Made by a program: the position numbers and the translations under genes. 28,332 nt of DNA from Candidatus Parvarchaeota archaeon. Its GTDB lineage: Archaea > Nanobdellota > Nanobdellia > Parvarchaeales > Parvarchaeaceae. Where the stretch lies: the NCBI GenBank assembly GCA_030044235.1, contig JASHWD010000102.1:1-28332 (forward strand), in the 5' to 3' direction. Every line of letters starts with the position of its first letter. Position 1 is the first letter of the stretch. The notes below the pieces were generated by a model, which saw only the letters and a program-made list of their open reading frames with translations, searched no databases and was not told the origin of the DNA. Positions 2,469-17,903 of the stretch are shown here, piece by piece.

Positions 2469-4267
2469 ACTTTTTTACCTAACGCTATCCTTGGGTATAT
2501 TCCGACCGATTTTAATTCGTCTAGTAATATCTTAAACGAAGCCGAGACCTCGATTAATTTTATAGGCGCGTCTTCTCCATCGAGTTGACAATAACCTGTT
2601 TTCTTTCTGACATTGTAAACTGAAATCATACCACATTTTCCACAAACCGGTATTGCTATCTTGTCGGAGTCAAATCTTTCCTTCAAAGACATTGCTGCGC
2701 CATAAGAAACAAAGCAGTCTTTCTCCATCTCCCCTAATCTTAAGCCGCCGCTCTTTGATTTACCCTCTGTAGGCTGTCTTGTAAGAAGTTGTATCGGGCC
2801 TCTAGCTCTCCATTGTATCTTATTAGATACAAAGTGCTTTAATCTTATGTAAGCCATATCACCAACAAAAATTCTTGTTTTCATCTCTTCGCCGGTTATG
2901 CCGTTATACATTGTTTCTACGCCATTTTCCCTAAAGCCGTAAGAATGAAGTTCTTTTCTCATAGACTCTTCGTCTTCGCCGGCAAATGGTGTACCATCTA
3001 TGTAGCGACCACCTAGCGCTCCGACTTTTGCACCCAAAAGTTCCAGAAGGTAAGCCATTGACATACGTGTTGGCAAAGAATAGGGTGAAAAGATTAAATC
3101 TGGTACTATACCAGAATAAGTAAACGGCATGTCTTCTTCGTCTAGCAACATTCCGACTACCCCTTTTTGTCCGCTTCTCGAACCAAACTTGTCTCCGATC
3201 TCAACTATTCTTTCTTGCCTTACTTTAATTGAAACGTACTTATTTCCATCTGCAGTCGATGTCAAAAACACATTGTCTACAGTACCGCTTTCCCCCGTCC
3301 TACACTCTACTGAAGATTCGACCTGCTTTTGAACGCCTAACCTAAACTTATCTATTGAAGACACAAATCGTGGCGGAGAAACTCTACCTATAAGAACATC
3401 GCCACTTTCAACTTTTGCAGATGGAAATGCTATTCCATCTTCATCAAGGAATTTATAAGCATCTTCGGATCTGTATCCGATTACGTCTTTATCCGGAACA
3501 GTTATAATGTCGCTCTGGCCGCCTATGTATTTTGTTTCTTCAATCTTATAAGGTCTGAAGAACATCGCTCTGAATAGTCCCCTGTCTACGGAGGATTTGT
3601 TTATTATAATCGCGTCGTCCATATTATAACCTAAATAGGAAACGACCGCAACGACTATGTTCTGGCCAAAGACGTGGCTCTTGAAAGATTCATTATCATA
3701 CATTTTTGTTTTTACTATCGGCAACTGTTGATCGATAGCGATCATCGAGTCATTATCCATTCTTATAAGATAATTATTAGAATAGATTCCTACTCCCTGC
3801 TGTACACTTTTAACGGCAGTAACATTTCTGTGCGCGTTACTGTGGTTTATAAACGGCAAAAGTGAAGCTTGGGTTCCAAATACGGAAAGAGGCGTTATTT
3901 CGAGGTGAGTATGTTGCGGAGTTAAATCGCTTTCGTTAAGCGCAACGTAAGCATCTTCTTCCTCATCAGCATCTAAATATTCGATTTTCCCGGATTGTAC
4001 CAGTGTGTCCCAAGTTATGTGATTTCCTTCTAAAAGGTTTATGTCCTCTTTTGTTACAAGCGGTTTGCCGTTTTTTACGACTATCAATGCTCTGACTAGT
4101 CTGCCACCATCGCTATTTATCATTACACTATCAGTTTCTTCTCTGTATCTTACATTAACGCTAGATGGAAGCGCGCCACTTCTTCTATCGTTTACAATAG
4201 CTTTAGCTAACTTTGGACCGTCGTCGGTTCTACCAGATAATCTCCCATTTACAAAGACAAATGTCAT
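2465..4267 (-). CDS. rpoB1: DNA-directed RNA polymerase subunit B' (Rpo2C, C-terminal half of split Rpo2)
   Basis: GDKF-SR-GQKG, LTRQPTEG, GGLRLGEME and a C-terminal CxxC zinc ribbon; starts at the usual archaeal split site (FVNG). Confidence 0.97.
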   Translation of the reverse strand: MTFVFVNGRLSGRTDDGPKLAKAIVNDRRSGALPSSVNVRYREETDSVMINSDGGRLVRALIVVKNGKPLVTKEDINLLEGNHITWDTLVQSGKIEYLDADEEEDAYVALNESDLTPQHTHLEITPLSVFGTQASLLPFINHSNAHRNVTAVKSVQQGVGIYSNNYLIRMDNDSMIAIDQQLPIVKTKMYDNESFKSHVFGQNIVVAVVSYLGYNMDDAIIINKSSVDRGLFRAMFFRPYKIEETKYIGGQSDIITVPDKDVIGYRSEDAYKFLDEDGIAFPSAKVESGDVLIGRVSPPRFVSSIDKFRLGVQKQVESSVECRTGESGTVDNVFLTSTADGNKYVSIKVRQERIVEIGDKFGSRSGQKGVVGMLLDEEDMPFTYSGIVPDLIFSPYSLPTRMSMAYLLELLGAKVGALGGRYIDGTPFAGEDEESMRKELHSYGFRENGVETMYNGITGEEMKTRIFVGDMAYIRLKHFVSNKIQWRARGPIQLLTRQPTEGKSKSGGLRLGEMEKDCFVSYGAAMSLKERFDSDKIAIPVCGKCGMISVYNVRKKTGYCQLDGEDAPIKLIEVSASFKILLDELKSVGIYPRIALGKKV

Positions 4268-5742
4268 ATTGGTTTAACCTCGTAATCTTTTAATTTCTTA
4301 ACTATTTCATTGGTTTCTACATTTTCATCGGATATCTTAGCTAGTAGAGCTATGTTCTTAGTTAAACCTATCTTAGGACCTTCTGGTGTCTCTACAGCGC
4401 AAAACCTACCAAAGTGTGTGCCGTGTAGGTCTCTCGCCCTATAATTTTCTCTATTAGAAGTAAGAAGCGATTCTACTTTCCTTAGATGAGACACAGTGGA
4501 AGGAAAACTTCTACGATCTAGGTGCTGTGTTATTCCTACTCTACCGCCAACCCACTGACCAGTTGCCAATGAAGATCTTAATCTAGAAGTTAGTTGATCT
4601 GAAGTAAATATATATCTAGGACTTGGAACTCTGTCTTTCTTTATTCCTCTTTCGAAGTTATACTTTGCATCGTTCAAAACCTGCTTGAAAACGAATCTAA
4701 AAAGCATATCAAGGTTATAATTCTCCGCGTGCAATCTTTTATTTGAATAGTGGTCCTTGTCTACTTCTTTCTTTGATATAGCGTAATTAAGAAGTCTTGA
4801 AACAACATAAATTAAGTATTCTCCTTTAAGTCTTCTAGATTCCTTATCGCGTCCTAAAAACGGAAACAGAAGCGCGTCTATGTTCAATTCTGCTGTTTCT
4901 ATTGAATGTACGGAATGAAGTGACTTGCCTATGTTGTCCAATGCGTCTTTCTCACTATCGACATTAAATGCTACAAGGTTTATGTCTATAGTATTCTCAA
5001 TGTCTTCATCGCCTTTAGATATCTTCTTTATCAATTCATTTTCGTTGGTGAATCCTAAGGCCTTTAATAAAATCATTACCGATACTTTCTTTAATTTTCC
5101 GAAGGTTATGTATAAAAGATTACTGTTAGATAATTGAATTGAATGTGGAACTTTTATATTGTCCGCATCCGCAAAGATTTTTACCGAATAAAGGAACCCT
5201 TCTTGACTTTCCTTCCCTATCAAAAGGTTATTTGGAGCTAAATCCTCTGTAGTTATTATTATTCTTTCTGTACCATTTATTATGAAATATCCGCCTGGGT
5301 CATTTGGATCTTCTTTTAATTTTACTAAATCTTCTCTAGATAAGCCCGAAAGATTGCAGAATTTCGATTTTACAACTATTGGAATCCTGCCGATGAATAC
5401 CTCTTCTTCTGCTACCGTCTTTTTATCAGCTAGATAGGAAACCGAAAGCACCATCGGCGCGTCATAAGTCAAATCTCTTATTCTTGCCTCCATAGGGGTC
5501 GTCGGTCTAGTAATGCTGTCGGCTTCTAATATGTCTGGCTTTCCTACAGTTAATTTACCAAGTTTAATTAAAAATTCGCCAACGCCTGTCGGTTTTATAA
5601 CCGGTTCTATAGTTGATTCGCTGTCTATTATTTTTTGCAGGCCCCTCTCTATAAAATATTCAAAGGAAGAGATGTGGTGCGCAGCTACGTTATTAGACTT
5701 AATTGCTGCTTCGAGCAGCTTATCACTTGCAGACTTGTCCAT
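4264..5742 (-). CDS. rpoB2: DNA-directed RNA polymerase subunit B'' (Rpo2N)
   Basis: TPMEARIRDLTY, DPGGYFIINGTER, RDLHGTHFGRFCAVETPEG; ATGA overlap with rpoB'. Confidence 0.97.
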   Translation of the reverse strand: MDKSASDKLLEAAIKSNNVAAHHISSFEYFIERGLQKIIDSESTIEPVIKPTGVGEFLIKLGKLTVGKPDILEADSITRPTTPMEARIRDLTYDAPMVLSVSYLADKKTVAEEEVFIGRIPIVVKSKFCNLSGLSREDLVKLKEDPNDPGGYFIINGTERIIITTEDLAPNNLLIGKESQEGFLYSVKIFADADNIKVPHSIQLSNSNLLYITFGKLKKVSVMILLKALGFTNENELIKKISKGDEDIENTIDINLVAFNVDSEKDALDNIGKSLHSVHSIETAELNIDALLFPFLGRDKESRRLKGEYLIYVVSRLLNYAISKKEVDKDHYSNKRLHAENYNLDMLFRFVFKQVLNDAKYNFERGIKKDRVPSPRYIFTSDQLTSRLRSSLATGQWVGGRVGITQHLDRRSFPSTVSHLRKVESLLTSNRENYRARDLHGTHFGRFCAVETPEGPKIGLTKNIALLAKISDENVETNEIVKKLKDYEVKPI

Positions 5743-5748
5743 AAATTT

Positions 5749-5982
5749 TTATTTAACTACAAAACGATAATATTTTGCTTGACCGGCGGTTTTACTATCT
5801 CGCGTTATTTCCAACACGTCTCCTTCATTCGCATTTAATTTCTTAACTGCCGGATCGGTAAGTTTAATTTTAGGTAAATCTCTTGTAATAACTTTAAATT
5901 TGTTAAGAATAGCCTCTACCTCGTCTACTTTCATTACACGATATTTTGGGGACAGGCGACTTGTAAAAACATCAATATCCAA
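5749..5982 (-). CDS. rpoH: DNA-directed RNA polymerase subunit H (Rpo5), TTG start
   Basis: LPKIKLTDPAVKKL...GDVLEITRDSKTAG..KYYRFVV; canonical first gene of the operon; GAGGT SD-like sequence upstream of the TTG. Confidence 0.95.
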   Translation of the reverse strand: MDIDVFTSRLSPKYRVMKVDEVEAILNKFKVITRDLPKIKLTDPAVKKLNANEGDVLEITRDSKTAGQAKYYRFVVK

Positions 5983-13917: not shown

Positions 13918-14238
<321 letters not shown>

Positions 14239-14302: not shown

Positions 14303-14557
14303 TTATTTATACTTCACTTTAAGGGCTATTATTAAACAGATAAGCACAAAAGATACTGCATTCGCAAGTATCACTGGTAGAGAACTTATATAAAATCCAT
14401 AGATTAGCCACAAAAAATCTCCGCATGCGATTATCAAAAACATCAATAAAGAGACTTCCTTCGCCGATTTGTCCTTAATTATTTTTATTACCTGGGGTAT
14501 AAAACAACCAGTAGTCAGAGTCCCTGCAACCAAACCTATAACTGTAATCCAATCCAT
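14303..14557 (-). CDS. SemiSWEET / PQ-loop family transporter
   Basis: 84 aa, three TM helices, FIPQ motif, SAKEVS, LWLIYG, PVILAN. Confidence 0.92.
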   Translation of the reverse strand: MDWITVIGLVAGTLTTGCFIPQVIKIIKDKSAKEVSLLMFLIIACGDFLWLIYGFYISSLPVILANAVSFVLICLIIALKVKYK

Positions 14558-14733: not shown

Positions 14734-16449
14734 TCAAATCTCAAAATAGGAGCTTGTTATCATCTCTCCGGTAATATTAAGCGCAGTTTTTAAGTTATTC
14801 AGATTGCTATTTCTTTCCTCCGGACTGGAAAGTCGAAATTCTAGAAAATTGCCCAAGTCGGATACTTTGCCATTTGTATTGACGTTTACTTCAAAGTCTA
14901 AAGAAAATACAGAACCGTTAAGACGATATAAAAATCTTGTCTTTTTTATTTGTTTTAATTCTCTATAAATTTGTGAAAGTCCTTCTTCTACATTTGGATA
15001 CGTATCTATATCTAACTTTCTTCTTTCGAATAAGCCATCTTTTGGTCCTTTATATGTCCACATTAATCTATTAGGCTCTCTGCGTATTCTTACGATTTCG
15101 TCCCTACAAGTTATGTCCATTCCACGAGCGTTATAGTAAGTGTCAATTTGTTCCGTCTTGTAAAGAAGTTCAGCTCCCAATTTTCTAAGTCTTTCGTGAT
15201 ATTCTAATTGGGTTCCGGATATCCTAAATTTAACTTGGCGATCCAAAACATTCGCACGTTTGGATTCTATTTCTGGATTATAACCGCTATTTATTATAAA
15301 ATCAGCATTAATCTTCGTTGGCTCTATATACTTTTCGTACATCGGTTCTCCGGTTTCTATGGTATAGCCTAATATTTTCGTCGCGGGCCATGTTGTTCTT
15401 TCCAAATCCCTTAGAAGCTTTCTTATAAGTCGATCGTGTTTGTTTGTATCTATAAATATTTTTAAATCACCATAAGTATCTAATCTAGAATTTAAAGCAA
15501 AAAGTCCTTCGACTATTATAACTCTATGTGGAGACACAACTTCATTCTTGTATGGGCCATCAGAAAAATCATAAATCTTTTTGTTTATAGTTTCACCGGC
15601 TAAAAGCTTCTCCAGATCCGCACTTGCTCTGTCAAGATCCAAAGCTTCCGGCTGATCGAAATTTATCTTCTGTCCGGATTTTGATAGTTCTTCTATATAC
15701 TTAGGACCAAAATAGTAATCATCTAAAGATATAAGAGCGGCATCGTCTCCAAATTGTGCCTTTAAGTCCTTTGCAAATGAAGTTTTGCCTGACCCAGAGC
15801 CACCGGCAATTAAGACCGTAACCGGCTTATTAGAGGAGGTTATAGCTAAATCAATTGTATTTTTTGCAAGAGACAACCCGTCTTTTAACTTTATTTCTGG
15901 CGGCTTTCCATTAGCGGCTAAGCTAGAATTATAATATCTTTTATCGTATGTTACCTCGAAAGAAAACCAATTTGGTTGCTTAAAAGATTCTGCTTTGTCT
16001 ATAGAGTCAAATTCTATCTCTGCGACATTCAAGCCGCTTAATTTATCTTTATAGATATTTAGTTCGATTGTATCCCCATTTTTAGTAGGAATTATATAAC
16101 GGGTCTTTCTTAGCGAAGTTAACGATTTGATTTCAATAGAATGAAATGTTTCTTTTGATATTTCGGCTTCGATTTCTGTTCTTTTAATGCCAGGACCGGA
16201 TTTTTCGGTTATATAATGCTTGTCTCCTACAGACCTTATTCTAACTTCAGACTTACCTTGAACGGGGATGTAATGTTGTTCTATCTCCTCTTTTTCATAT
16301 AAATCCAAGTTTTCCGGAAGGCTTGATATAAAGAACTTTCTTTCTATTTCATCATGTTTAACTGAGGATTTTAGAACTTCGGATAACGTTTCTTTGTCTA
16401 GTATTTGCTCAAGGCCGCTTTTTTCTTCGGAAAGCGACGACACTGTCAT
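14734..16449 (-). CDS. Triple fusion: CYTH domain + uridine kinase-like P-loop kinase + second CYTH (CyaB-like) domain
   Basis: N-terminal EIERKF...VRIR...KSGPGIKRTEIE...KTRY; middle GGSGSGKT, DDYY, FDQPEALD, EGLFAL, RD, YIEPTK; C-terminal QIDTYY...VRIR...TYKGPK...KKTRFLY...GNFLEF. Confidence 0.88.
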   Translation of the reverse strand: MTVSSLSEEKSGLEQILDKETLSEVLKSSVKHDEIERKFFISSLPENLDLYEKEEIEQHYIPVQGKSEVRIRSVGDKHYITEKSGPGIKRTEIEAEISKETFHSIEIKSLTSLRKTRYIIPTKNGDTIELNIYKDKLSGLNVAEIEFDSIDKAESFKQPNWFSFEVTYDKRYYNSSLAANGKPPEIKLKDGLSLAKNTIDLAITSSNKPVTVLIAGGSGSGKTSFAKDLKAQFGDDAALISLDDYYFGPKYIEELSKSGQKINFDQPEALDLDRASADLEKLLAGETINKKIYDFSDGPYKNEVVSPHRVIIVEGLFALNSRLDTYGDLKIFIDTNKHDRLIRKLLRDLERTTWPATKILGYTIETGEPMYEKYIEPTKINADFIINSGYNPEIESKRANVLDRQVKFRISGTQLEYHERLRKLGAELLYKTEQIDTYYNARGMDITCRDEIVRIRREPNRLMWTYKGPKDGLFERRKLDIDTYPNVEEGLSQIYRELKQIKKTRFLYRLNGSVFSLDFEVNVNTNGKVSDLGNFLEFRLSSPEERNSNLNNLKTALNITGEMITSSYFEI

Positions 16450-16506: not shown

Positions 16507-16623
16507 CTAAGCACTTCTTTCACGAAGAAGCCTTCTCTTTCTCTTACGCTCAAGCATTTTCTTCTTCCTAGTTTTCCACCTGTCTTTGTGGTATTTTTTC
16601 CAGTTTTTTGAACTTCTCTTCAT
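16507..16623 (-). CDS. rpl41e: Ribosomal protein eL41 (L41e/eS32)-like, 38 aa; missing from the ORF track
   Basis: Manual translation MKRSSKNWKKYHKDRWKTRKKKMLERKRKRRLLRERSA* resembles the archaeal L41e pattern KRSSxxWKK...RWK...KKR; starts 5 nt after the dcd stop. Confidence 0.8.
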   Translation of the reverse strand: MKRSSKNWKKYHKDRWKTRKKKMLERKRKRRLLRERSA

Positions 16624-16628
16624 AGGTT

Positions 16629-17171
16629 CTACTTCCTTTTGTTCAAATTTATATCTTTCGCACCTGTAACACCCGTCGAATTCTGGTATTTTCCAGCGTA
16701 TGGTTGATTTACTTTGGAATTTGTCCTGCTAAAAACTAGGTGCAGCATCCTGGTGTCCCTTTCTATGACTACCGGTACCGGACCACCAGTAAGCAATATA
16801 GTCAGATACCCGCTGAAACCTGCATCTGCTATAGTGGGCGGTATTGACATTCCTAGCCTTACAAAAGTGCTTCTTATGTTACAGAAACCCACTAAGTCAT
16901 CTGGTAAAGTTATTTTTTCCTTTATTTTAACAAGCACTCTCTCGTTCTTGCCCAAGACAAAAGACTTCTCTACTTTTTCTAACTTATATAATTTTGGTAA
17001 TTCTTCCTTTTTAGATACATCGACTGGCGAATCTGTATCTACAAATCTGCTTATCTCATCGCCTATTCGTAAGTCAACTCCATTCTCTCTTATAGTGTCA
17101 TCAGAAATCTGATCTATTACTAATTTTTTGGAATCTAAGTATAAACGAATATCAGCATCACTTAAGATCAT
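16629..17171 (-). CDS. dcd: dCTP deaminase/dUTPase-family protein (start corrected to ATG 17171)
   Basis: MILSDADI, IRENGVDLR, RSTFVRLG, DAGFSG, PYAGKYQ; resembles Sulfolobales-type Dcd. Confidence 0.9.
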   Translation of the reverse strand: MILSDADIRLYLDSKKLVIDQISDDTIRENGVDLRIGDEISRFVDTDSPVDVSKKEELPKLYKLEKVEKSFVLGKNERVLVKIKEKITLPDDLVGFCNIRSTFVRLGMSIPPTIADAGFSGYLTILLTGGPVPVVIERDTRMLHLVFSRTNSKVNQPYAGKYQNSTGVTGAKDINLNKRK

Positions 17172-17243
17172 AGTAATCCTTAACCTGTCATTAATAAAAG
17201 CCTTTTTGTAACAATTAAATAAGTTGAATTGGTAATTTAAGAT

Positions 17244-17903
17244 ATGGAATACAAAGGTCTTAATATAGATTGGCTCCACCATAACTGTTTTAGAATATGC
17301 GGTAAAAATGCGACTATTTACACCGACCCGTATAAAATAAATAAGAATTACAACGATGCTAGCTTAGTTCTAATAACGCACGACCATTATGACCACCTAG
17401 AAGCGGCCAGCATAAGCAAAGTTATATCTAAAAATTCTGTAATTGTCGCACCAAAGGACTGCGAAAACCCTCTGGCAGCATTTAAAAATAAAAAGATTCT
17501 AGTTTCTCCATACGAAGTAAAGATAATAGATGAAGTAACTATAAAGACAGTACCTTCTTATAATACAAATAAATTTAGGGACAAAAAAGAAGTCTTCCAC
17601 CCAAAAAGCAAGGGCAACGTTGGTTACGTCTTTATTGTAGACGGAATAAGGCTCTACATTGGCGGCGATACAGATCTGATAGAAGAAATGGGCGATCTCA
17701 GAGTCGACGTAGCGTTTTTGCCTGTAAGCGGAACATACGTTATGACCGCAGAAGAAGCTGCAGAAGCAGCAAAACGAATACATGCCGACCTGACCATACC
17801 ATCCCACTACGGCTCCGGCATAGGAACATCACAGGATGCTCAAAGATTTAAAAAACTTGTTGGTCAAGACCTTAATGTAAAAATCCTAGACTCGGTGGAT
17901 TAA
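17244..17903 (+). CDS. MBL-fold metal-dependent hydrolase (UPF0173/UlaG-like)
   Basis: TDPY, THDHYDH (HxHxDH), GGDT, PSHYG. Confidence 0.9.
   Translation: MEYKGLNIDWLHHNCFRICGKNATIYTDPYKINKNYNDASLVLITHDHYDHLEAASISKVISKNSVIVAPKDCENPLAAFKNKKILVSPYEVKIIDEVTIKTVPSYNTNKFRDKKEVFHPKSKGNVGYVFIVDGIRLYIGGDTDLIEEMGDLRVDVAFLPVSGTYVMTAEEAAEAAKRIHADLTIPSHYGSGIGTSQDAQRFKKLVGQDLNVKILDSVD

Follow-up and report, generated by a model that had tools for sequence, protein, structure and literature searches.

What use might a tiny archaeon of the symbiont type have for a nucleoside kinase that is held between two CYTH domains? The question is raised by a gene in a 28,332-nucleotide contig of a Candidatus Parvarchaeota archaeon (JASHWD010000102.1, assembly GCA_030044235.1), the whole of which we call the window. 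On its (-) strand a single open reading frame (ORF) at 14734..16449 encodes 571 amino acids followed by a stop codon, and its translation is uninterrupted (0 internal stops). The product joins an N-terminal CYTH domain, a P-loop kinase resembling uridine and cytidine kinases, and a C-terminal CYTH domain. We describe it as a kinase-TTM protein of the TTM1/2 type with an added, apparently active domain of the NeuTTM type, belonging to an uncharacterised prokaryotic family. The function that we propose for it, with a probability of about 0.55, is a composite one: a pyrimidine-nucleoside salvage kinase that would be gated by a non-hydrolysing triphosphate sensor and that carries, in addition, a probable tripolyphosphatase.

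Domain layout and the likeness to plant TTM1/TTM2

An initial annotation of this DNA, made from its letters alone, had described the three domains and an asymmetry between the motifs of the two CYTH domains. This layout is real, and every motif quoted was found in the translation: EIERK at residues 34-38, Walker A GGSGSGKT at 216-223, DDYY at 243-246, YDFSDGPY at 293-300 and DRQVK at 403-407. A Pfam scan of the whole protein placed PRK at residues 214-389 (E 3e-26) and CYTH on two stretches (E 1.3e-18). An AlphaFold2 model was built from 61 homologues, with a mean predicted local distance difference test score (pLDDT) of 90.6 and a predicted TM-score (pTM) of 0.70. Both CYTH regions, which had been read as tunnel folds, were beta barrels in this model, and Foldseek matched them to the structures of NeuTTM and SaTTM.

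All parts of the protein are encoded on the (-) strand. Residues 1-33 (16351..16449) form an N-terminal extension with two short predicted helices (residues 12-16 and 19-28; pLDDT about 89-91 past residue 10), the sequence of which is not conserved across the fusion family. The N-terminal CYTH domain, of the NeuTTM type and with its catalytic set intact, occupies residues 34-179 (15913..16350) and aligns end to end with NeuTTM (PDB 2fbl/3typ). It is followed by a linker and pre-P-loop helix (residues 180-205, 15835..15912; helix 188-205 in the model) and then by the kinase (residues 206-398, 15256..15834), which was recognized by Pfam PRK, by homology to uridine/cytidine kinases (UCKs) and by its fold. 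The C-terminal CYTH domain (residues 399-571, 14737..15255), recognized by Pfam CYTH and by a match to SaTTM, has a degenerate metal site 2 (DxQxK and ExR).

The kinase and the C-terminal barrel together resemble the plant proteins TTM1 and TTM2. A profile of this module was made from an alignment (A2) of 50 kinase plus C-terminal CYTH sequences, two-domain forms included, and its best PDB match was AtTTM1 (7z66, E 2e-48). Profile positions 5-376 were colinear with AtTTM1 residues 28-379, a stretch that runs through the pre-P-loop helix, the kinase, the lid (RtGQxPedI vs RAGQEPEEI), the NeYnP/NKFNP junction and the strands of the barrel. In a Foldseek search the best fold match of the kinase and C barrel was likewise the AtTTM1 tandem (7z67, E 3.6e-23). 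Among Swiss-Prot models the top four matches were TTM2, udkC, TTM1 and udkD, the udk proteins being those of Dictyostelium; all four covered residues 183-570, with a root-mean-square deviation (rmsd) of 3.7-4.0 Å across some 400 residues. AtTTM1 as crystallized superposed poorly (rmsd 14.6 Å), which is consistent with the swung-in, autoinhibited state of AtTTM1 in the crystal as against its AlphaFold state (PMC9582702). In AtTTM1/2 an inactive TTM is packed against the kinase, and in AtTTM1 an extra N-terminal helix ahead of the P-loop completes the kinase core (PMC9582702). The pre-P-loop helix of the window protein (188-205 in the model) aligned with AtTTM1 residues 28-45 and is probably equivalent to that extra helix; the short helical linker is modelled at residues 392-398.

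The order of parts in TTM1/TTM2 (7z66/7z67) and udkC/udkD is that of window residues 183-571: a pre-P-loop helix, a UCK-like kinase, a linker that is short and helical, and a barrel whose acidic patch is damaged. Also common to the TTM1/2-type proteins and the module are the lid R-x-G-Q-x-P-E-x-I and the loss of the equivalents of UCK2 His117 and Arg176. The differences are equally clear. TTM1/2 and udkC/D have no N-terminal CYTH domain, and sequence identity is only about 20%. The plant proteins are 643-674 amino acids long, with a coiled-coil and a tail anchor, whereas the window protein stops after the barrel (...SSYFEI) and lacks a hydrophobic tail. The plant barrel reads TxIxK, YxRxR and QxQ, whilst the prokaryotic family has E/D-x-Q-x-K, I-x-R-x-R and E-x-R. 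The kinase-TTM tandem has been described as unique to plants (PMC9582702), and despite the label 'plant-specific' in the literature the kinase plus C-terminal CYTH module is a prokaryotic counterpart of TTM1/TTM2. The likeness to the plant proteins, which had been remarked on from the letters alone, was thus borne out in both the PDB and Swiss-Prot comparisons. The three-domain version had not been recognized as a known architecture, and our literature search, which ran mostly without subscription journals, turned up nothing published on a kinase-CYTH protein from prokaryotes or on a three-domain one.

Conserved sites in the barrels and the kinase

Searched on its own, the N-terminal piece had no Pfam match and aligned over its full length with NeuTTM (E 5e-20 as a single sequence, 4e-49 as a family profile). 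Its modelled barrel (pLDDT about 86-97) matched NeuTTM 2fbl/3typ with a TM-score of 0.72-0.74 over 147 columns. NeuTTM (NE1496) is a specific inorganic tripolyphosphatase that stands alone, whereas its counterpart in the window, about 35% identical over 150 residues, is fused upstream of a kinase. The ExExK motif is present in full (E34-I-E36-R-K38), and of the roughly 205-220 homologues that carry this domain, within a 280-sequence alignment, 195 have E34, 191 have E36 and 178 have K38. The residues of the ExE motif (E144, E146) and of the basic tunnel (R70, R72, K83, K115, R117) are invariant or nearly so; each of these positions, like Y60 and the three of ExExK, is retained in at least 85% of the homologues with the domain, and most in more than 90%. 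The catalytic dyad of NeuTTM is Tyr-28/Lys-52 (PMC3440374). Y60 and K83 align to it and are both invariant in the alignment of the N domain (A3). With every catalytic residue of NeuTTM in place, the dyad included, the N-terminal barrel is apparently an active triphosphatase.

The C-terminal piece alone matched Pfam CYTH (E 1.4e-11; 45 bits vs a cut-off of 23.2) and SaTTM (7ns8, E 2e-8), and the modelled barrel fitted SaTTM with a TM-score of 0.82-0.83 and an rmsd of 2.5 Å. No solved relative is closer to this barrel than the archaeal tripolyphosphatase SaTTM (Saci_0718, PDB 7ns8-7nsf), with which it shares TYKGPK and RxR. SaTTM is active and has ExExK and E135-x-E137, whereas the window domain has D403-x-Q405-x-K407 and E537-x-R539. 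In AtTTM3, YgiF and SaTTM, the first Glu of ExE forms metal site 1 and holds a metal together with the triphosphate (PMC4641920, PMC8233210). Metal site 2 draws on both Glu residues of ExExK as well as on the second one of ExE, and activates the attacking water (PMC4641920, PMC8233210); in AtTTM3 and YgiF, changing Glu to Asp or Ala at these positions cripples hydrolysis (PMC4641920). It is this second site that is incomplete in the C domain.

The altered site is not confined to the window. Position 405 is Gln in 261 of 277 homologues and Glu in 2. In the alignment of 280 homologues, position 539 is Arg in 194, Gln in 22 and Lys in 19, with Glu outside the six commonest residues, and position 403 is Glu in 217 and Asp in 31, the window having Asp. 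E537, R454, R456, K467, K503, R505 and D518 are each retained in more than 92% of homologues. The family pattern of the C domain is therefore ExQxK / ExR, with conservation of at least 93% and 70% among the homologues, and the asymmetry of motifs between the two barrels is a property of the whole family rather than a local oddity. Since the changed pattern is conserved and Glu is uncommon at position 539, the changed site is evidently under purifying selection and has not simply decayed. To judge from these residues, the C barrel keeps the basic tunnel and site 1, which would serve substrate binding, and lacks two of the three catalytic ligands of site 2, which have given way to Gln and to a cationic Arg; the pattern looks like the signature of a binding domain rather than that of a decaying enzyme.

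The kinase domain aligned with the uridine kinase of T. thermophilus (E 1e-24) and with UCK2 (E 1.6e-17), and its modelled fold matched uridine/cytidine kinases with TM-scores of 0.74-0.81. In common with the UCKs (T. thermophilus 3asy, human UCK2 1udw) it has the Walker A motif, the catalytic Asp (DDYY) and the ribose-binding Asp (NFDQP). K222 (the P-loop Lys) was found in 277 of the 280 homologues, D243 (UCK2 Asp62) in 278 and D265 (UCK2 Asp84) in all 280, and by alignment Tyr65, Phe83 and Tyr112 of UCK2 correspond to Y246, F264 and Y293. The window kinase differs from the UCKs in having a pre-P-loop helix instead of their C-terminal helix, and in the base-reading positions. His117 and Arg176 of UCK2 contact the pyrimidine base, and both positions are changed in the window kinase. 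From the absence of the His, the initial annotation had concluded that the substrate is not uridine. The loss is real and the conclusion does not follow from it: the Thermus enzyme has Tyr at the position of His117, and AtTTM1 has Ser there and Gln at the position of Arg176, losses that AtTTM2 shares, yet AtTTM1/2 convert uridine and ATP to UMP in vitro (PMC9582702).

A proposed role in pyrimidine salvage and the alternatives

The gene content of these organisms bears on what the kinase may do. The window genome comprises 768 kb in 103 contigs and is 82% complete. In it the fusion is the only PRK-family gene, orotidine monophosphate (OMP) decarboxylase and CTP synthase were not found, matches to uracil phosphoribosyltransferase (UPRTase) were all sub-threshold, and there is one AA_kinase gene, which is UMP-kinase-like and is probably the UMP kinase. 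The closest relative (G018, 100% complete) likewise has the fusion as its only PRK-family gene, and neither OMP decarboxylase nor CTP synthase was found there. The fusion is also the only PRK-family gene of G219 (98% complete), in which CTP synthase is present and OMP decarboxylase was not found. Overall, seven of the nine fusion-bearing genomes examined have no other PRK-family gene. A setting of nucleotide scavenging, which had been suggested from the neighboring genes, fits these data, in that OMP decarboxylase was missing from the genome and its genus, and CTP synthase from the genome and its closest relative. With no OMP decarboxylase, CTP synthase or true UPRTase, and with a single kinase of the PRK family, a uridine/cytidine kinase would be the visible entry into U and C nucleotides. 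A second link to pyrimidine nucleotide metabolism comes from an archaeal relative (locus L100), in which the three-domain gene (2613-4220, (-) strand) lies head to head with a CTP synthase gene (4320-5978, (+) strand); the context is probably archaeal, as it includes V-type ATPase subunit I.

The reading that we favor draws on the domain identities, folds, conservation, homology to TTM1/2 and gene content observed above, and from these we infer the substrates, the sensor role and the coupling of the domains. The central domain would be an ATP-dependent ribonucleoside kinase which most likely turns scavenged uridine and cytidine into UMP and CMP, and which would be the only recognizable entry point for pyrimidine nucleosides in this organism. 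The C-terminal barrel, the kinase and the pre-P-loop helix would form a rigid two-domain module, as in TTM1/TTM2 and udkC/D. Within it the C barrel would bind a triphosphate-Mg ligand without hydrolyzing it, either inorganic tripolyphosphate (PPPi) or a nucleoside triphosphate (NTP) such as the end products UTP and CTP. In its ligand-bound state the barrel may gate the kinase by controlling access to the nucleoside site, as has been proposed for autoinhibited AtTTM1 (PMC9582702). The N barrel probably hydrolyses PPPi or a related triphosphate, a reaction that may serve to detoxify PPPi or to clear away the ligand read by the sensor barrel.

A number of observations weigh against this proposal. 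The equivalent of UCK2 His117 is G298 in the window and Gly or Ser across the family, and that of Arg176 is W354, with Gln or Trp across the family, so that the true nucleoside could differ. Scores for the NCBIfam uridine-kinase equivalogs fall below both cut-offs (NF004018, 135 bits vs 180; TIGR00235, 129 vs 220.3). A genome of the same genus (G142, 98% complete) has CTP synthase and no PRK-family gene, OMP decarboxylase again not being found, and the kinase is thus not indispensable in the lineage. Two of the nine fusion-bearing genomes have another PRK-family gene (udk-like in G439, a weaker match of 229 amino acids in G302), which hints at a non-redundant role for the fusion. As for the barrels, the Asp found at N-domain position 131 in 96% of the family is replaced by Asn (N131) in the window lineage, which also has Asp for Glu at position 403, a type of change that impaired activity when made in the ExExK motif of AtTTM3 (PMC4641920). 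AtTTM1/2 have been reported as weak pyrophosphatases (PMC9582702), so a degenerate TTM need not be inert. Finally, the models disagree on how the N domain is oriented towards the other parts (rmsd 14.6 Å to K2FZZ4, a homologue described below).

Some of these points would suit a kinase whose substrate is neither uridine nor cytidine (candidates being other ribosides, including those of the vitamin type, and phosphorylated metabolites), with tunnels and kinase carrying out a new coupled phosphotransfer. The family-wide replacement of the two base-contacting residues, the scores under the equivalog cut-offs and the genomes with a separate PRK-family gene all point that way, and the authors of the AtTTM1 structure raised the same possibility for the plant proteins (PMC9582702). 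We nevertheless think it rather unlikely, given that AtTTM1/2 have the same substitutions and still make UMP (PMC9582702), that the ribose-binding and catalytic Asp residues are invariant, that the fusion is so often the sole kinase of its family, and that no other route to UMP or CMP is visible in these organisms. The C-terminal CYTH domain might instead be a working hydrolase with altered chemistry, for example a pyrophosphatase like AtTTM1/2, in which case the protein would combine two phosphohydrolases with a kinase and hold no sensor. That Q405, R539, E537 and the basic residues are strictly conserved does indicate a site under selection, and the plant proteins have their weak activity despite lacking the TTM signature (PMC9582702). 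That activity is low when set against a control pyrophosphatase (PMC9582702), however, and the loss of two of the three site-2 ligands, where even a Glu-to-Asp or Glu-to-Ala change cripples AtTTM3 and YgiF (PMC4641920), makes a hydrolase improbable here.

A plainer view, which we hold to be less probable still, is that of an ordinary uridine kinase with CYTH domains fused to it for co-expression only and no functional coupling. It would account for the two-domain forms being scattered through the tree, and for related genomes having stand-alone udk (about 208-250 amino acids) and NeuTTM-like CYTH proteins (about 180 amino acids), one of the latter sharing 68% identity with a fusion's N domain. 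It sits badly with the way in which kinase and C-terminal CYTH domain are retained as a unit, and are predicted to be oriented alike, in Patescibacteria, archaea, plants and Dictyostelium; with the pre-P-loop helix, aligned to that of AtTTM1, which replaces the usual C-terminal helix and makes the kinase appear adapted to the fusion; and with the specific, conserved, non-canonical site of the C barrel. The initial annotation had also offered a nucleotide-signaling role, and many homologues are named at source (NCBI) as class IV (CyaB-type) adenylate cyclases. That the protein is such a cyclase or another cyclic-nucleotide signaling enzyme is very improbable. The match to TIGR00318 (cyaB; residues 406-571) reached 51.9 bits, under the curated cut-off of 57.95. 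Class IV adenylate cyclases are marked by HF four residues before ExExK, a small residue for the first Arg of RxR and Ala for the second Glu of ExE (PMC8233210), and all three signatures fail in both barrels. There is no HF in E-S-K-R-A-N-V-L before D403 (family consensus E-A-x-R-S-G-x-H-E) or in S-S-V-K-H-D before E34; both Arg residues of RxR are retained (R454/R456 and R70/R72); and position 539 is Arg and position 146 Glu, neither being Ala.

Two further candidates were rejected. A specificity like that of thiamine triphosphatase was set aside because W/Y-x-R-x-R (the criterion of PMC8233210) is missing: the N domain reads E-V-R-I-R and the C domain I-V-R-I-R, with I/L/M/V at position 452 in the family. 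A Zeta-toxin or defence role was dismissed as the Pfam Zeta_toxin match (5e-6) covered only the P-loop segment at residues 204-245, and the PADLOC match (0.0018) the same segment.

Distribution, neighboring genes and significance

The three-domain architecture is not peculiar to this genome. A word-indexed search returned more than 100 full-length PRK plus CYTH proteins of 540-610 amino acids with 35-44% identity; those that were named came from Patescibacteria, Parcubacteria or Paceibacterota, with products called 'class IV adenylate cyclase' or 'uridine kinase'. K2FZZ4 (AlphaFold DB / UniProt, 597 amino acids) has the same layout and aligned to window residues 34-570. A phmmer search of 1.84 billion cluster representatives (50% identity) gave 209 clusters at E ≤ 1e-30, which span three-domain forms (about 550-590 amino acids) and two-domain forms of kinase plus C-terminal CYTH (about 390-420 amino acids). 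The two-domain forms start in the region of the linker and pre-P-loop helix, and those checked are real, since their ORFs are bounded by upstream stops. Among 300 genomes of the window's own phylum the fusion was found in the window's genus only, and among 400 Patescibacteria the three-domain form was found in about two and the two-domain form in about three; a fusion is present in about 1% of the species genomes sampled. Stand-alone udk and NeuTTM-like CYTH genes were far commoner in both samples. The architecture is thus uncharacterised but not unique, sparse per genome and widespread in metagenomes. Most of its bearers are Patescibacteria, and the window gene belongs to an archaeal subgroup.

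In trees of the family the window's clade (with P0002 and G018) grouped with a Nanoarchaeota sequence (L016). The same group held proteins from contigs of archaeal character (GatD/E, aIF5B, RpoL, Thg1, archaeal pilin) and a protein labelled Nitrososphaerota. The tree was unrooted; in it this archaeal group was embedded among sequences of Patescibacteria, and most archaeal sequences fell in one region. One of nine sequences labelled archaeal (P0259, with an L15e/Pcc1 context) lay, in the careful tree, close to the core group but not within it. The archaeal grouping was modestly supported (Shimodaira-Hasegawa-like approximate likelihood ratio, SH-aLRT, 94; wider group 75/83). The window contig is itself archaeal, as it carries ribosomal protein S8e and Mre11/Rad50; together with synteny within the genus and the archaeal contexts of related genes, this led us to reject bacterial contamination or mis-binning as the source of the gene.

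Other CYTH genes were observed alongside. The window genome has three more, all stand-alone (C73:447-872 on the (+) strand, C33:4301-4687 on the (-) strand and C4:2035-2505 on the (+) strand), giving five CYTH barrels in total. Two of these are close paralogues that start MSHLN(I/V)EIKA, with NxExK in place of ExExK and with EIE retained near the end; the third starts IEIEYR. In Patescibacteria (Minisyncoccota) there is also a cluster of proteins of about 367 amino acids which join an AAA_28 (NadR-type) kinase to a CYTH domain, and kinase-CYTH fusions may have arisen more than once in small-genome bacteria.

On the (-) strand of the window the gene order is dcd, a 38-amino-acid basic ORF, the fusion gene, a SemiSWEET gene, a ferredoxin gene, an 82-amino-acid ORF and a methyltransferase gene. 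Upstream of the fusion, the dCTP deaminase-like gene dcd (16629..17282, (-); Pfam DCD 1.5e-28) has its Pfam match beginning at residue 39, and the long form of its ORF overlaps a divergent gene for a metallo-beta-lactamase-fold hydrolase (17244-17903, (+)) by 39 nt. The true start is probably Met38 (MILSDADIR...), near 17171. Then comes the 38-amino-acid, very basic ORF (MKRSSKNWKKYHKDRWKT..., 16507-16623, (-)), 5 nt after dcd and before the fusion gene. Downstream lie the SemiSWEET / PQ-loop gene, encoding 84 amino acids (14303..14557, (-); Pfam PQ-loop 1.7e-12, MtN3_slv 1.1e-7), and the ferredoxin gene, with two Fe-S cluster motifs (13918..14232, (-); Pfam Fer4 families).

The initial annotation had placed the fusion in a same-strand block with dcd and SemiSWEET. 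The genes do share a strand; a conserved functional unit they are not, the adjacency being seen in this genome only. The other fusion loci fetched gave no match to dcd; of these, that of G018 ends, with its contig, inside the fusion gene and that of G219 has no dcd nearby. In tblastn searches SemiSWEET was found only in the window's own loci and was absent from the closest relative G018 and every other locus. At its syntenic place G018 has 258 nt between the fusion and ferredoxin genes (compared in L096:1590-1847 and L007), so this small transporter gene was either acquired or lost recently. The idea of SemiSWEET and the kinase as a facilitator-and-trapping pair like PnuC/NadR was rejected because SemiSWEET is not beside the fusion in any other locus.

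Ferredoxin is a more constant neighbor. A gene for one, with two Fe-S cluster motifs, directly adjoins the fusion in four archaeal loci, some of whose fusion proteins share no more than about 40% identity; it lies downstream in three of them and upstream in one. The homologue beside the fusion is 96% identical in G018 and 48% identical in G219/L016 (L016:5464-5850), where it is upstream, and at L099:11246-11611 a different ferredoxin lies downstream of the fusion gene. The first ferredoxin motif reads CxxDxxC...CP, which we take to be of the 7Fe type. In G018, whose fusion protein is 78-79% identical, the order fusion, ferredoxin, small ORF, methyltransferase, Rad50, Mre11 is kept. Two independent assemblies of this closest relative (G018:C5 (L007) and the L096 contig) end within or just upstream of the region coding for the N-terminal CYTH domain, which suggests a repeat or strain-variable region upstream of the fusion there. 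The loci of Patescibacteria had no conserved neighborhood, the neighbors including TrmB, DUF4349, an ATP synthase operon and SAM (S-adenosylmethionine) synthetase.

The proposal can be taken a step further, to a self-contained triphosphate switch. The C tunnel would sense PPPi or UTP/CTP and lock or release the kinase, the N tunnel would destroy the ligand and reset the switch, and a family of the Patescibacteria/DPANN type would be the source, or the nearest living model, of plant and Dictyostelium TTM1/2. We offer this tentatively and think it on balance doubtful. If it were true, the ligand and the physiological reaction of TTM1/TTM2 would be directly testable in a small soluble protein.

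In plants TTM1 and TTM2 act in senescence, immunity and flowering time, and their real substrate and regulatory logic are still being sought. The same kinase-TTM module occurs in very small prokaryotic genomes, where gene content points clearly to a setting of pyrimidine salvage. The prokaryotic version may be the more informative one, as it has a conserved ExQxK / ExR tunnel and an intact NeuTTM-like tunnel in one chain as a built-in comparison. Being soluble, free of membrane anchors and available in natural two- and three-domain variants, these proteins would lend themselves to a search for the ligand of the 'dead' tunnel. The analysis also puts right a database label in wide use, 'class IV adenylate cyclase', and it offers a candidate key enzyme for modelling how Patescibacteria and DPANN archaea scavenge nucleotides.

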